Part shown: piece after piece, positions 4,518 to 7,183 of the stretch
Layout: the number at the start of each line of letters is the position of its first letter
Position numbering within the stretch: position 1 is the first letter of the stretch
NCBI GenBank assembly: GCA_964533505.1
Contig: CAZHKA010000035.1
Span: 1,288 to 65,287 of the forward strand
Origin: an uncultured Candidatus Bathyarchaeia archaeon
Lineage (GTDB): Archaea; Thermoproteota; Bathyarchaeia; 40CM-2-53-6
Direction: 5' to 3'
Length of the DNA: 64,000 bases
Translations under genes and position numbers: made by a program
Notes under the pieces: generated by a model
What the model saw: the letters and a program-made list of their open reading frames with translations, nothing else
Database searches by the model: none
What the model was told of the DNA's origin: nothing

Positions 4518-5567
4518 TTAATTCCAATGCTTGCTTGACGCCTTCCAGTAGGCTCTCCAGTACGGATCAAACTTCGGATATCGTATGGTTCGCTTCCTGC
4601 CTCTTGAATCAACGCCGCGAAAGGCCCGGCGTGTCGTTAGTTTGCCAATTACCGCAGATCCGATACCTGCCGGCCGAAGACTCGCCATGACTCTCCGAGT
4701 TCTCTCGGGTTTGCAAGCGATCAGGAGGCTTCCTTCACTAAGAGAGTGGAAGGGATCAATGTGGAACAATTTGCAAATCTCCTTTGTCTCTAGGGATACC
4801 GGAATGTCGGAAAGAGCTAGTTCGACACCTACTTTCGAAGCGTTGGCAACCTCCAAAACGGCCGCTATTACTCCTCCCTCAGTCGCGTCGTGCATTGCAG
4901 TTACTCCGTTTTCGTGCACTCCTACGGAGACGGCTGCGAGAGCATCGCTGACGGTCGATACTTTAGGCAGGTATGCAAGGGCCTTCTCGAATAAGTCGGA
5001 ACCTATGAATCTCTTCACTTTCCTTGGGAAGACTCTGGCCAATACCGCTGTGGTTTCTATGGCTGCTCCTTTGGTGAGAATAATCTCGTCCCCAGGATGA
5101 GCCATGCCAGAAGTCAAGTATTGATCCTCCTTTCCGATTGCGCACATGGTCCCACCGCCGATTACCGTGTAATCGCATCCCTGATACCTACCAGTGTGGC
5201 CCCCGATTATTGCTAACCCCAATTTGGCGCACTCCTCATGGAAATATTTCCAATAGTTTGCAAAGAGGCCTTGAGACATTGTAGGAGGTAGGTTGAAGTC
5301 GAAGACGCCGTACTGGGGTACAAGCCCGCTTGTTGTCAGGTCGGAGGCGAGCAAGTTGACCGATAACCAGGCGGAGGCAGAGGCCCCCAAGGTTGGAATG
5401 AATGAGAGAGGGTCCGCAGTAACAACAAGGACTTTTCTCGCCCCGATCCTCACAACGGCGTTATCGACCCCAAACCTCGGCCCTACGACAACGTCACCTC
5501 TTCTTGCGCCCAGCCGGCGGTAGATTACCTTCGCTAGATACTTGCGGTCAGGTTTTCCGAGAATCAA
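4518..5567 (-). CDS. AIR synthase-related protein (PurM/HypE/ThiL superfamily)
   Basis: GVDNAV, DPLS, IIGGHTG, AMHDATEGG and SEGSLL motifs. Confidence 0.88.
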   Translation of the reverse strand: MILGKPDRKYLAKVIYRRLGARRGDVVVGPRFGVDNAVVRIGARKVLVVTADPLSFIPTLGASASAWLSVNLLASDLTTSGLVPQYGVFDFNLPPTMSQGLFANYWKYFHEECAKLGLAIIGGHTGRYQGCDYTVIGGGTMCAIGKEDQYLTSGMAHPGDEIILTKGAAIETTAVLARVFPRKVKRFIGSDLFEKALAYLPKVSTVSDALAAVSVGVHENGVTAMHDATEGGVIAAVLEVANASKVGVELALSDIPVSLETKEICKLFHIDPFHSLSEGSLLIACKPERTRRVMASLRPAGIGSAVIGKLTTRRAFRGVDSRGRKRTIRYPKFDPYWRAYWKASSKHWN

Positions 5568-5715: not shown

Positions 5716-6345
5716 TCAAGCTTCTCCAAAGAATTGTACGCGGAACGCGCCTCGAATCGCCTTTATCAAAAGAAGAGCTACAGGAATCCAGATCAGATCG
5801 ATGAGAGTGCCAAAGTCGAAAGCTGCGAGGCTGAGACCTGCCATAAAACCCGCAGGCGCGCCGTAGAAGAATGTAAATGAATAGAAGAACCAATCTGGAA
5901 AGAAGAACGCCAACGTCTCGTAGACAGTTGCTATCACCATGGCGAAGACGAGCCACGATGCTGATTTCCGTCTGAATTTGTTCATGATGAGAGCTTCAGG
6001 CCCCCGCGCCCATATCATACCGGGTATGTAAATTACGGCAAATGCTGCGGGTGCCGAGCCAAAGATTAGGACGTTAATTGCTTCTCCAACGGCCGAGCCA
6101 ATGGCGGTAGACCAGAAGCTGACTCTGCGAGGAAACAGCACGCTTAACGTGAGATAAACCGCAGGGGCGAAAGTGATCTCAGACAGCGGCGCGGGCAGCG
6201 GAATCCCGAGAAGAGCGGTGGAAAAGGCAGTGGTTACAGCGATCAGTGCAGAAAAACAAGCGGTCTCGGCAAGGAATAGAGTCTGGCTGCGACCTTTCGT
6301 GCCCATGCCTTCGACCGTTTTCCTCTTTTCGGCTTGATTGGACAT
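5716..6345 (-). CDS. ECF-type S component, probably specific for thiamine or a thiamine precursor
   Basis: Hydrophobic ~6-TM 209-aa protein with A.FSAL N-terminal helix and AIGSAVGE motif; preceded by a TPP riboswitch and a GGAGGTG SD. Confidence 0.75.
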   Translation of the reverse strand: MSNQAEKRKTVEGMGTKGRSQTLFLAETACFSALIAVTTAFSTALLGIPLPAPLSEITFAPAVYLTLSVLFPRRVSFWSTAIGSAVGEAINVLIFGSAPAAFAVIYIPGMIWARGPEALIMNKFRRKSASWLVFAMVIATVYETLAFFFPDWFFYSFTFFYGAPAGFMAGLSLAAFDFGTLIDLIWIPVALLLIKAIRGAFRVQFFGEA

Positions 6346-6444
6346 AGTCTACACCTCCGTCCAATCGAGACGTTCAGAAGCTGCGAATGCAGAGCCGCAA
6401 AAGTCGACTATAGACCTGCAAGGTCCACTGAGACTGATTCCCAT

Positions 6445-6542
6445 CTTCCTTTTCCTACGCCGGCATTACCCGGATCAGGTTCACGGGGTCAACGACCATT
6501 GTCGTCCTCTCAGCCGGGACACACCCCAGCTCCCCCCGGTAC
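6445..6542 (-). promoter_or_regulatory. TPP (THI-box) riboswitch
   Basis: Minus strand reads GGGG-AGCTGGGG..TCCCGG-CTGAGAG-GACGAC/GTCGTT-GACCCC-GTGAACCTGATCCGGGTAATGCCGGCGTAGGAA. This carries the GCTGAGA, GAACCTGA and GTAAT..CGTAGG consensus elements. P1 looks weak. Confidence 0.92.
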
Positions 6543-6613
6543 CTTCTGCGAAGTGGAGGCGTAAGGGTCGGATTTAGCCTTCTCGTTTAGCGGTCATGAA
6601 CGAGATTTACTGA

Positions 6614-7183
6614 TTACTTGGCATATTTTGACTTGAGTTCAACTCTATGAATTTCGACGCGCGGTGCGGCATAGAGCGTTATGAATGGATCAGGTTTGCT
6701 TGTCTCTCCGGCTATAATCGTACCTGATGAACTGCCAAGATCGTCGAATAGCACATCGCCGTTCTCCTCCCCAAGAATTGCTGCATGCACCCTAGACGGA
6801 ACAATTCTTACTCGACTATCGAAGCGCTCCAGTTCACTCTCCGACTCCATCGACCAAACAATTAGCTTGGAGTCGACCGGTTCTCTTCTGCCTAGGATGT
6901 ACAGAGCGCCTTTTTTTAGCTCGACGGATGCGAGTGTTCCGCTAAGGAGTCTCCGTGAGTCCGAATAAAAGAGTGGCGTGGTGCGGCCGAGCACTATAAT
7001 GACGGGATCGATTGTGGCGCTAATCTTGAACGGCTCGTGGGCTCTAATCGAGTTCGCACCATATTGCGCCGCATAAGAGGAATAAGCCTCCTCGAAGGCC
7101 GGATGTTTCTTACGAAAGAGTGGAAGCGAATTGTCCAATCTCTTTTGGAATGATGCGAGCGTTTGCATCGTTGCTCTCATCAT
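6614..7183 (-). CDS. FHA-domain-like protein
   Basis: ILGR, SRVHA and DLGSSSGT (normally DLGSxNGT) motifs. Confidence 0.65.
   Translation of the reverse strand: MMRATMQTLASFQKRLDNSLPLFRKKHPAFEEAYSSYAAQYGANSIRAHEPFKISATIDPVIIVLGRTTPLFYSDSRRLLSGTLASVELKKGALYILGRREPVDSKLIVWSMESESELERFDSRVRIVPSRVHAAILGEENGDVLFDDLGSSSGTIIAGETSKPDPFITLYAAPRVEIHRVELKSKYAK

Follow-up and report, generated by a model that had tools for sequence, protein, structure and literature searches.

The window, that is, the whole stretch of 64,000 nucleotides analysed here, contains on its minus strand a TPP riboswitch aptamer followed by the genes for a six-helix membrane protein and for a paralog of the PurM/ThiL/HypE superfamily (Table 1). 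Searching the whole window with cmscan against Rfam 15 yielded a match to RF00059 (TPP) at 6546..6434 with 66.1 bits and an E-value of 9.2e-11, the gathering score of this family being 54.3 bits. The match covers all 105 model positions (1-105) without being cut off, and it is the sole Rfam match at or above the gathering score within the window as well as the sole TPP match in the 2.49-Mb source genome. A TPP aptamer upstream of an S-component gene had originally been predicted at this place, and the covariance-model score is indeed significant; the span then proposed, 6445-6542, falls within the match, and the strand (minus) can now be supplied. A linker of 88 nt separates the aptamer from the ATG (6345..6343) of the next gene on this strand. 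Since 148 nt lie between this gene and the second one, more than the 30-50 nt seen in most loci, their co-transcription is only presumed. A Pfam scan of 51 further ORFs of the window revealed no archaeal marker and no thiamine gene, and no tRNA was found in the window by ARAGORN.

Table 1. Features of the riboswitch locus, listed in the direction of transcription.
Feature	Position in window	Strand	Basis
TATA-like element CTAAAT, probable archaeal promoter	6572..6577	-	conserved in close leaders
TPP riboswitch aptamer (Rfam RF00059)	6434..6546	-	66.1 bits vs 54.3; P2-P5 recovered
Linker from aptamer to start codon, 88 nt (expression platform)	6346..6433	-	sequence reading
Shine-Dalgarno-like GGAGGTG, 6 nt before ATG	6352..6358	-	sequence reading
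209-aa membrane protein, unnamed ECF S-component-like family; candidate thiamine importer	5716..6345	-	fold, context, ThiT exclusion
349-aa AIR-synthase (PurM/ThiL/HypE) superfamily paralog; candidate thiamine-phosphorylating enzyme	4518..5567	-	Pfam AIRS + AIRS_C

All letters that are highly conserved in the TPP model (GCUGAGA, ACCC, UGAACCUGAUCCGG, UAAU and CCGGCGUAGG) are found in the window, the sole exception being one G>A change after P4. The core sequences of both sensor arms, i.e. the CUGAGA junction and the ACCUGAUC...UAAU...GCG arm, are present, and they are invariant in 22 close leaders and in 33 aptamers of the order; the letters of the CUGAGA junction and of the UAAU/GCG arm are presumably those contacting TPP, as in the crystal structures. 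Helices P2-P5 were recovered, with compensatory changes in 7 of the 19 pairs predicted from the 33 aptamers, one P3 pair being CG in 18 and UA in 14 of them. In the 22 close leaders, 2 of 25 pairs carry changes on both sides that keep the pairing. The core is near-invariant among these leaders, the proteins of which are 77-100% identical, and the flanks vary freely; the purine-rich tail after P4 is conserved as well. By score and conservation the element is a real TPP riboswitch aptamer, with TPP as its predicted ligand. The term canonical, applied to it in the original prediction, is slightly generous, because P1 is weak.

P1 is the helix that usually transmits ligand binding and links the aptamer to the expression platform. 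In the model alignment this closing helix is poor, 2 of its 5 pairs being non-standard, and RNAalifold predicted no P1 either in the 22 close leaders or in the 33 aptamers; for the 22 leaders it returned P2-P5 only and no conserved structure in the linker. When read by eye, the ThiT leaders of the same genus contain a GGUACC that can pair with GGUGCU just after P4. The subgroup of the window has a purine tract in place of this GGUGCU 3' strand, and within the genus the sequence 3' of GCGUAGG differs between ThiT-type and S-like-type leaders. A purine-rich GGAGG/GAGG word occupies the Shine-Dalgarno position in most of the 22 aligned leaders.

Several candidate pairings were tried and rejected. 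For the 5'-terminal 18 nt, a duplex with the 64 nt following P4 did no better than shuffles (p mostly >0.3), and a long-range helix chosen by eye (A2 columns 7-12 with 142-145 and 155-156) was paired in 68.9% of its cells as against 69.1% after shuffling, with 294 of 500 shuffles scoring as high. Shine-Dalgarno/anti-Shine-Dalgarno pairing with the 41 nt upstream gave a median p of 0.56, and p was below 0.1 in 2 of the 22 leaders. The predicted accessibility of the ribosome-binding site was lower with the aptamer locked than with it free in just 10 of the 22 S-like leaders. For the ThiT leaders it was lower in 11 of 13, with means of 0.33 and 0.38 and most pairs equal to two decimals, a measure too insensitive to use. 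Folded as a single sequence, the window leader (z of -1.85) did not form the aptamer, and a local hairpin GAUUGGAC/GUCCAAUC (6366..6359 with 6343..6336) appeared around the Shine-Dalgarno word and the start codon; this hairpin is not conserved in the kin. A Shine-Dalgarno word is present, these predictions support neither a masking of it nor a terminator platform, and control may act on translation or on transcription.

Upstream of the aptamer, all 20 aligned leaders from close relatives share the word CTAAAT unchanged, the next 26 nt varying freely, and each of the 30 riboswitch loci of the order has a TATA-like word 25-37 nt ahead of P2. With CTAAAT as the promoter, transcription would begin a few bases 5' of the aptamer. 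Contigs from three peat RNA libraries, at most one base off the window, lie over 6188-6380, 6218-6353 and 6305-6475, the last spanning the 3' half of the aptamer through the start codon. The shares in the three peat metatranscriptome runs are small, the uncovered parts (e.g. 6525-6700, where the presumed promoter lies, and most of the coding region) being uninformative, and the contigs give a weak hint of transcription, DNA carry-over being possible. RNA pieces of high depth at 6451-6494 were set aside, as they run on into unlike sequence and belong to TPP switches of other organisms.

The 209-aa membrane protein scored 24.6 bits against Pfam PF07155, below the cut-off of 26.7 bits; many of its homologues bear a precomputed PF07155 label, and a variant from the same genus reaches 34.3 bits. 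Its AlphaFold model (mean pLDDT 76.7, pTM 0.72) has six helices. Superposition on the PDB with Foldseek gave ECF S components at all ranks from 1 to 17 (PanT, ThiT, RibU, FolT and BioY, including PanT 6zg3_C, ThiT 3rlb and RibU 5kbw), with TM scores of 0.44-0.70, probabilities of 0.92-1.00 and E-values of 0.016-0.43, none of which reaches 0.001. As judged from the model, the protein has the ECF S-component fold. A match to EcfT/CbiQ, part of an energising module that might serve this protein, was found in the source genome (G000:C4:12507-13097, 94 bits), and EcfT is present in all five genomes comprising the source and four kin. PF09515 (Thia_YuaJ, ThiT) matched neither the 209-aa protein nor anything else in the source genome, so that the protein is not filed as ThiT, though it stands in ThiT's place. 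Within the GTDB family (f1, 25 genomes), the 209-aa type occurs in 6 genomes and ThiT in 15, with neither in 4 and both in none. The protein is best regarded as a candidate thiamine importer standing in for ThiT, with thiamine as its presumed substrate.

The 349-aa product of the second gene has ThiL as its best NCBIfam match, yet with 75.1 bits against thiL TIGR01379 it lies far below the equivalog cut-off of 184.15 bits, and its sequence matches in the PDB are weak (3C9T and 1VQV; E 3e-5 to 1e-3). The canonical ThiL is encoded at a separate locus of the source genome (G000:C55:18751-19704, 249 bits). In 48 of 56 genome loci, the gene of the paralog comes directly after the S-like one, and in loci of the same genus it also follows ThiT, with 51-72% identity; in public records it is named 'hydrogenase maturation factor', 'HypE' or 'AIR synthase family protein'. 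It does not appear to be a canonical ThiL, and phosphorylation of thiamine is its candidate role.

The TPP switch characterises the lineage and is not special to the source genome, being common throughout the class. Matches over the cut-off were found in 33 of the 41 genomes of the order sample, in 92 of 151 genomes of the class sample and in 31 of 151 genomes of the phylum sample, four other families of the phylum having the switch; in the class sample, 49 of 80 genera have a match at E <= 0.001. In the kin, the aptamer is followed first by the gene for ThiT (PF09515, 143-167 bits), ThiW (PF09512, 126-146 bits) or the 209-aa type, and one more target in the order is a permease-like gene. All but one of the 25 ThiT matches over the cut-off lie directly downstream of a TPP match, the exception being a fragment of 61 aa. 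For the S-like gene, a TPP switch over the cut-off lies upstream in 11 of 14 loci from genomes of the Bathyarchaeota type; those lacking a TPP match are L046, L047 (cut at its 5' end) and L077 (in which the gene looks broken). Among metagenome loci, a regular expression for the TPP core matched 57 of 67, 8 of the 10 misses having less than 150 nt upstream. Twenty of these loci, all close, were checked with the Rfam model and all 20 have the switch, at 62-73 bits. More distant S-like loci, with about 50-57% protein identity, also retain it. Riboswitch control in another archaeal lineage, as put forward in the original prediction, is borne out with respect to the TACK host; a few riboswitches in Crenarchaeota, Korarchaeota and Thaumarchaeota had already been counted by McCown et al. 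(2017, PMC5473149).

A different arrangement is seen in the Nitrososphaerales-type loci, none of which (0 of 42) has a TPP switch. In 41 of the 42, a divergent gene of about 314 aa lies beside the S-like/enzyme pair, and its product combines a ThiN domain (141 bits) with a weak N-terminal match to a regulator, an HTH+ThiN architecture like that of ThiR. As read from these loci, the gene pair is thus accompanied by one thiamine-linked control device in one archaeal class and by a different one in the other. The TPP switch upstream, the ThiR-like gene in Nitrososphaerales and the mutual exclusion with ThiT constitute three independent lines from which a thiamine role can be assigned to the pair, and they uphold the earlier proposal of a thiamine-related ligand for an otherwise unassigned transporter.

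Genes of thiamine metabolism and of its regulation were sought in the source genome (G000) and four kin from its family (G022, G023, G016 and G015). ThiC, ThiN and thiamine pyrophosphokinase (TPK) were found in none of the five, nor was ThiE over the cut-off, and the search for Thi4 returned FAD-motif fragments only. With ThiC, ThiE, ThiN and the pyrophosphokinase not found, thiamine synthesis appears to be missing and the organism looks like a thiamine auxotroph; the source genome being 92% complete with 6.5% contamination, not found does not equal absent there. The original prediction had pointed to ThiR as the regulator in many other archaea. No gene with the ThiN/ThiR domain (PF10120) was detected in any of the five genomes by a search that did pick it up in four archaeal control genomes and in all five genomes labelled Nitrososphaerales.

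Taken together, we consider it likely that the locus represents a real TPP aptamer at or near the mRNA 5' end of a two-gene thiamine salvage operon in a peat-soil Bathyarchaeia archaeon (Thermoproteota, TACK). At high TPP, the aptamer would bind TPP and the expression of the operon would fall, the direction of control, like the binding itself, being deduced by us; at low TPP, the importer and the enzyme would be made. The membrane protein, as the replacement of ThiT, would import thiamine, the paralog, a putative ATP-using enzyme, would phosphorylate it to thiamine monophosphate, which would be trapped in the cell, and the canonical ThiL would complete TPP. Import, trapping by the paralog and finishing by ThiL make up the most economical reading. 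A bolder version is put forward only tentatively, and we would sooner expect it to fail than to hold in all its parts: the locus may belong to an undescribed archaeal salvage system in which a new S-component family replaces ThiT and the ThiL paralog supplies the archaeal thiamine kinase still missing (thiamine to TMP) and so traps the vitamin, sensing being done by RNA in Bathyarchaeia and by a ThiR-type protein in Nitrososphaerales, and the Bathyarchaeia switch lying at the first transcript bases, without a normal P1 and with a platform unlike the bacterial ones.

It is rather unlikely that the aptamer is genuine and the module handles another thiamine-related compound, such as an HMP or thiazole precursor, a degradation product or TMP/TPP, on which the PurM-like enzyme would act. 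TPP switches of the same order also control ThiW, the S component for the thiazole precursor, and the permease-like gene, and the ThiN-domain gene adjoining the S-like gene in Nitrososphaerales-labelled genomes would give the module a wider connection with thiamine metabolism than import of the intact vitamin alone. However, ThiE and ThiN, the two known enzymes joining the two halves, were not found in the source genome and its four kin, to which a precursor would therefore be useless. Moreover, the 209-aa type sits exactly in the slot of ThiT, no genome having both, and the same enzyme follows ThiT, the family of which is a thiamine S component.

An aptamer surviving as a leftover is less probable still, and we give it little weight. 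ThiT would have been replaced just after P4/P5 and the 3' strand of P1 lost with it, so that no switching would occur and expression would be constitutive or otherwise controlled. The undetectable P1, the lack of support for any alternative pairing and the divergence after GCGUAGG between the two types of same-genus leaders all agree with such a history, but the core is near-invariant amid free flanks in the 22 leaders, the tail of purines following P4 is likewise conserved, the close loci (20 of 20) still score 62-73 bits, and the S-like loci at about 50-57% protein identity keep the switch, a conservation that a dead element would not be expected to show.

As for the host, ribosomal protein L15e was found in all five genomes, the control search being positive solely in the four control genomes that are archaeal. 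One genome from the family of the source (G023, identical to L040) is titled 'Candidatus Bathyarchaeota archaeon'; the source is therefore neither bacterial nor a member of Thermoplasmatales, in agreement with the archaeal origin first predicted. That a bacterial contaminant of the bin supplied the contig, and with it an ordinary bacterial TPP riboswitch, is hardly credible, even with an estimated contamination of 6.5%, no informational archaeal marker protein in the window and three related records labelled as bacteria (L037 'Acidiferrales bacterium', L038 'Dormiibacterota bacterium' and L041 'bacterium'), given that the riboswitch, ThiT and enzyme locus recurs on megabase contigs of near-complete genomes of the same genus (e.g. 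G015:C1, 1.37 Mb), that archaeal L15e is present also in G022, itself labelled 'Acidiferrales bacterium', that 7 of the 14 Bathyarchaeota-type records are labelled Bathyarchaeota archaeon, 2 Bathyarchaeia archaeon and 1 Crenarchaeota archaeon, that the other 42 records all bear archaeal labels (Nitrososphaerales, Nitrososphaeria, Nitrososphaerota, Nitrosopumilales, Thaumarchaeota, Candidatus Gagatemarchaeum or plain 'archaeon'), and that an archaeal-type TATA word precedes the aptamer at a fixed distance.

Riboswitches are held to be rare in archaea. To our knowledge, the standard account confines TPP switches to Thermoplasmatales and has other archaea use ThiR, and we know of no archaeal TPP switch with its mechanism worked out. 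Here, the switch turns out to be common throughout a class of archaea that abound in soil and sediment (92 of 151 sampled genomes). The ThiR-like neighbour of the same gene pair in ammonia-oxidising archaea offers a clean natural swap between an RNA and a protein sensor. Used as a label, the switch suggests a thiamine role for two families publicly called 'hypothetical protein' and 'hydrogenase maturation factor', and it would mark its bearers among Bathyarchaeia as vitamin B1 auxotrophs depending on their community, the gene pair pointing to a so far unannotated route of uptake and trapping for the vitamin. Mechanistic work on archaeal TPP switches could also reasonably start from an aptamer with a poor P1 that probably lies right at the 5' end of its transcript.

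Among known systems, the bacterial TPP riboswitch before thiT, e.g. that of the Lactococcus lactis thiT leader (RF00059; PMC8862789), belongs to the same aptamer family and occupies the same 5'-leader position before a thiamine-uptake gene, the target in the genus studied here being in part ThiT itself. The locus of the window differs in its archaeal host, in a TATA-like promoter that would start the RNA at the aptamer, in a weak or missing P1, in tests that gave neither a terminator nor a Shine-Dalgarno-masking platform, and in an importer from an unnamed S-component-like family co-located with a PurM-superfamily enzyme. In Thermoplasmatales, TPP riboswitches upstream of thiamine transporter genes were reportedly described by Rodionov and colleagues in 2002; the aptamer examined here shares with them an archaeal host and a position before a transporter gene (a candidate one in this case), but belongs to the phylum Thermoproteota of TACK and not to Thermoplasmatota. 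The targets of the Thermoplasma switches are MFS-type transporters, in contrast to the ECF-type S component with a ThiL paralog seen here and to a switch distributed class-wide. ThiR, said by Rodionov and colleagues in 2017 to combine DNA-binding and ThiN-like domains and to repress archaeal genes of thiamine uptake and synthesis, is a protein regulator in place of an RNA. On the same gene pair, as judged from gene neighbourhoods, the RNA and the protein device replace each other. With ThiL (TIGR01379) the 349-aa paralog shares its superfamily, yet it remains far under the family cut-off in a genome that has a separate canonical ThiL. Uptake of the Pnu type is coupled to metabolic trapping, as in PnuT with thiamine pyrophosphokinase and PnuC with NadR. 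The arrangement of a small membrane carrier gene beside a kinase gene under vitamin-sensing control is similar here, and the same logic of import followed by phosphorylation is proposed, but with an ECF S-component fold, a PurM/ThiL-like kinase superfamily and a trapping step that is deduced from the gene pair.

Scanning the window with cmscan (Rfam 15) returned the TPP riboswitch family, RF00059, on the minus strand at 66.1 bits (E 9.2e-11; gathering score 54.3 bits), and the match contains the whole of the interval 6445-6542 in which the original prediction had placed such a riboswitch. It was the sole Rfam match to reach the gathering score across the 64-kb window; tRNA genes were detected there neither by ARAGORN nor at the gathering score of the Rfam tRNA model. 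All 105 positions of the RF00059 model are covered by the aptamer, and the model alignment demonstrated that the conserved letters GCUGAGA, ACCC, UGAACCUGAUCCGG, UAAU and CCGGCGUAGG are all kept. It is less convincing at the closing helix, P1, in which two of five pairs are non-standard. No second TPP match was found in the genome of the window, G000 (2.49 Mb in 70 contigs; 92% complete, 6.5% contamination).

Features of the riboswitch locus, in window coordinates
Feature	Position	Strand	Remark
Upstream neighbour gene	6614-7183	minus	189-aa protein; stop codon 6616..6614
Hairpin TCTCG ... CGAGA	6581-6605	minus	between the stop codon of the 189-aa gene and the TATA-like word
TATA-like word CTAAAT	6577..6572	minus	invariant; behind a purine-rich stretch; 26 nt before AAGGUACC
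TPP aptamer (RF00059)	6546..6434	minus	
Local hairpin	6336-6366	minus	GAUUGGAC with GUCCAAUC
Shine-Dalgarno (SD) word GGAGGTG	6358..6352	minus	precedes ATG of the S-like gene
Start of the S-like gene (ATG)	6345..6343	minus	88 nt 3' of the aptamer, same strand
S-like gene	5716..6345	minus	209 aa
PurM-like gene	4518..5567	minus	349 aa; 148 nt beyond the S-like gene

The archaeal nature of the host, likewise predicted, is borne out by ribosomal protein L15e, present in G000 and in all four related genomes examined (the search gave matches within the control set in the four archaea only), and by the public title 'Candidatus Bathyarchaeota archaeon isolate BA_22' under which G023, a genome from the same GTDB family, is recorded. 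Three related records carry bacterial titles, L037 ('Candidatus Acidiferrales bacterium'), L038 ('Candidatus Dormiibacterota bacterium') and L041 ('bacterium'), all probably taxonomy labelling errors; the title of L037 is read as a mislabel because its genome, G022, which shares the GTDB genus of the window, holds archaeal L15e.

In the order sample, 33 of 41 genomes have a TPP match above the cut-off, as do 92 of 151 drawn evenly from the class and 31 of 151 from the phylum, where matches outside the class are restricted to four families (9/12, 8/15, 2/5 and 2/3). At E ≤ 0.001 a match is found in 20 of the 22 other genomes of the same genus and, counted by genus, in 49 of 80 genera of the class sample. 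Of 19 pairs predicted from an alignment of 33 aptamers, 7 show compensatory changes. The distribution and these changes mark a genuine element that selection maintains and that characterises the lineage rather than G000 alone.

The first gene after the aptamer encodes a membrane protein (the S-like protein) whose sole Pfam match, ECF-ribofla_trS, falls below the cut-off (24.6 versus 26.7 bits). The second encodes a paralogue of the AIR-synthase (PurM/ThiL/HypE) superfamily (the PurM-like protein) with both AIR-synthase domains matched; its best NCBIfam match, thiL, lies at 75 bits far below the cut-off of 184, among PDB sequences it matches HypE and ThiL (E 5e-16 to 1e-3), and its family is publicly labelled 'hydrogenase maturation factor', 'HypE' or 'AIR synthase family protein'. 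Over the window as a whole, the gene content is metabolism and transport only. The upstream neighbour, with a faint FHA-domain match (19.4 bits, below cut-off), still adjoins the riboswitch locus in most close metagenome contigs. The hairpin that follows it, whose arms covary in several relatives (e.g. CTCGCT with AGCGAG), may be the end mark of the upstream transcript.

In the order, 30 loci were compared, and the gene that comes first 3' of the aptamer is of the ThiT, ThiW or S-like type, the two copies of ThiT scanned (Pfam Thia_YuaJ) scoring 143 and 167 bits, and ThiW 126 and 146 bits. Across the 41 genomes, 24 of 25 ThiT matches above the cut-off lie directly 3' of a TPP match, the exception being one fragment. 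Within the same genus the second gene, after ThiT, encodes the PurM-like protein with 51-72% identity to the window copy. Two loci (L024 of genome G017 and L028 of G002) carry a more distant S-like variant of 232 aa under a TPP switch, the L024 copy, the only one scanned, matching PF07155 at 34.3 bits; the next gene encodes, in place of a PurM-like enzyme, a 223-aa protein resembling SAM-dependent methyltransferases by eye. In other families of the order (L002, L005, L006, L010 and L018) the switch is followed by ThiW and a 202-214-aa protein, with a Walker-A-like GxxGxGK(S/T) word in the two copies inspected (L002 and L005).

The AlphaFold model of the S-like protein (17 homologues; pLDDT 76.7, pTM 0.72) has six helices, and the best 17 Foldseek matches in the PDB are ECF S components throughout (PanT, ThiT, RibU, FolT, BioY) at TM 0.44-0.70, with weak E-values of 0.016-0.43. 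Its nearest neighbours in a language-model atlas are an unnamed archaeal cluster and ECF S-component clusters. The S-like protein is thus predicted to have the S-component fold, outside every named family. A survey of species-representative genomes yielded 56 loci of this family, 14 of Bathyarchaeota type and 42 with titles such as Nitrososphaerales or Thaumarchaeota. A TPP switch above the cut-off lies just upstream in 11 of the 14, the other three being L046, the 5'-truncated L047 and L077, where the gene looks broken; close metagenome loci carried it in 20 of 20 checked (62-73 bits). No TPP switch was found upstream of the S-like gene in the 42 Nitrososphaerales-type loci (0/42), and 41 of these have a divergent gene starting about 40-130 nt upstream of the S-like start. 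In its product of about 314 aa, a ThiN domain (141 bits) is preceded by an N-terminal region that matches a regulator only faintly, the domain order described for ThiR, the thiamine repressor of archaea. The PurM-like gene follows the S-like gene in 48 of the 56 loci (14/14 and 34/42, respectively). Among 25 genomes of the window's GTDB family, the S-like protein occurs in six and ThiT in 15, never together, and neither occurs in four (67-89% complete), a pattern and not a statistic, related genomes being non-independent. The linkage to the TPP switch, the ThiR-like neighbour and the exclusion with ThiT argue for the thiamine-related ligand that had been proposed for the transporter.

In the Nitrososphaerales-type loci (L048-L092) a TTTATAA box is located between the ThiR-like and S-like genes, and since it stands only some 25-35 nt before the S-like start, the S-like mRNA is probably leaderless there. 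The inverted repeat CTTAT-N-ATAAG overlapping this box is a candidate operator. Locus L169 (453-1031 minus and 1072-2016 plus) serves as an example.

The spacer between CTAAAT and AAGGUACC, the conserved opening of the aptamer, is freely variable, and in 30 of 30 order loci a TATA-like word precedes P2 by 25-37 nt. CTAAAT would be an archaeal promoter that starts the RNA no more than a few bases from the aptamer; a predicted start so near leaves little room for a 5' strand of P1. In ThiT-type leaders of the same genus, read by eye, pairing is possible between GGUACC and a GGUGCU just 3' of P4, and a downstream GGU(A/G)ACCUUCAC has complementarity to two segments, the 5' AAGGUACC and GUGAAG beside the SD word; in our reading these leaders would follow the classical three-part translational design. 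In the window's subgroup the 3' strand of P1 gives way to a purine tract that is conserved as GGGAGAGGAAAAGUGGAAC and reads GGAAAAGGAAGAUGGGAA in the window itself, and equivalents of the ThiT-type pairings were not found in its leaders, all pairing tests being negative or insensitive. The local hairpin at the start of the S-like gene holds the SD word in its loop and also takes up the G of the start codon; no conservation of it was found across 21 close leaders. Binding of TPP would switch expression of the downstream genes off. Control at translation is favoured because a strong SD word follows a leader of about 200 nt, with no better than an even chance against transcription or RNA stability. 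Peat metatranscriptome contigs from three runs match 6188-6380 (1 mismatch/193), 6218-6353 (0/136) and 6305-6475 (1/171), the last running from the aptamer's 3' half into the start of the coding region, a weak hint, DNA in the libraries being possible, that leader and S-like gene share one RNA.

Searches of G000 and its four relatives detected ThiC, ThiE above the cut-off and thiamine pyrophosphokinase in none of the five genomes (0/5 each), and Thi4 gave merely FAD-binding motif matches (profile positions ~10-140) in longer unrelated proteins. ThiN was not found in any of the five, so that the genome search for thiR, suggested with the original prediction, returned no ThiN-domain gene. EcfT was found, and G000 has a canonical ThiL (249 bits). 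A third ThiL-like paralogue (G000:C34:29281-30126; TIGR01379 113 bits, below cut-off) has a counterpart in each of the four relatives. Within the limits set by a 92% complete genome, the host appears to be auxotrophic for thiamine, possessing the last kinase, ThiL, and lacking a known enzyme for the conversion of imported thiamine to TMP; the riboswitch-linked PurM-like paralogue would be the obvious candidate for this step.

Archaeal TPP switches are reportedly confined to Thermoplasmatales according to the ThiR work of Rodionov et al. 2017, and 'Riboswitches in Archaea' by Gupta and Swati 2019 may bear on novelty. The ThiR work is cited in PMC10746257. McCown et al. 2017 (PMC5473149) give 79 riboswitches for Euryarchaeota, against six for Crenarchaeota and a single one for each of Korarchaeota and Thaumarchaeota, TPP and fluoride being the common archaeal classes. 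A description of a TPP riboswitch in Bathyarchaeota was not found in the open-access literature searched, where papers with both terms, riboswitch and Bathyarchaeota, concern other topics by title and abstract. This is a known riboswitch class in a lineage for which no open-literature description was found, though an Rfam scan detects it readily, and the above-cut-off RF00059 match in a Bathyarchaeia host upholds the proposed extension of riboswitch control to another archaeal lineage. As a label, the switch marks an unnamed candidate thiamine importer family and a candidate for the missing thiamine kinase; of further interest is a possibly P1-less mode of archaeal switch. What the window adds is that an unnamed S-component family takes the place of ThiT, together with the S-like/ThiT exclusion pattern and the swap of the RNA sensor for a ThiR-like neighbour on the same gene pair.
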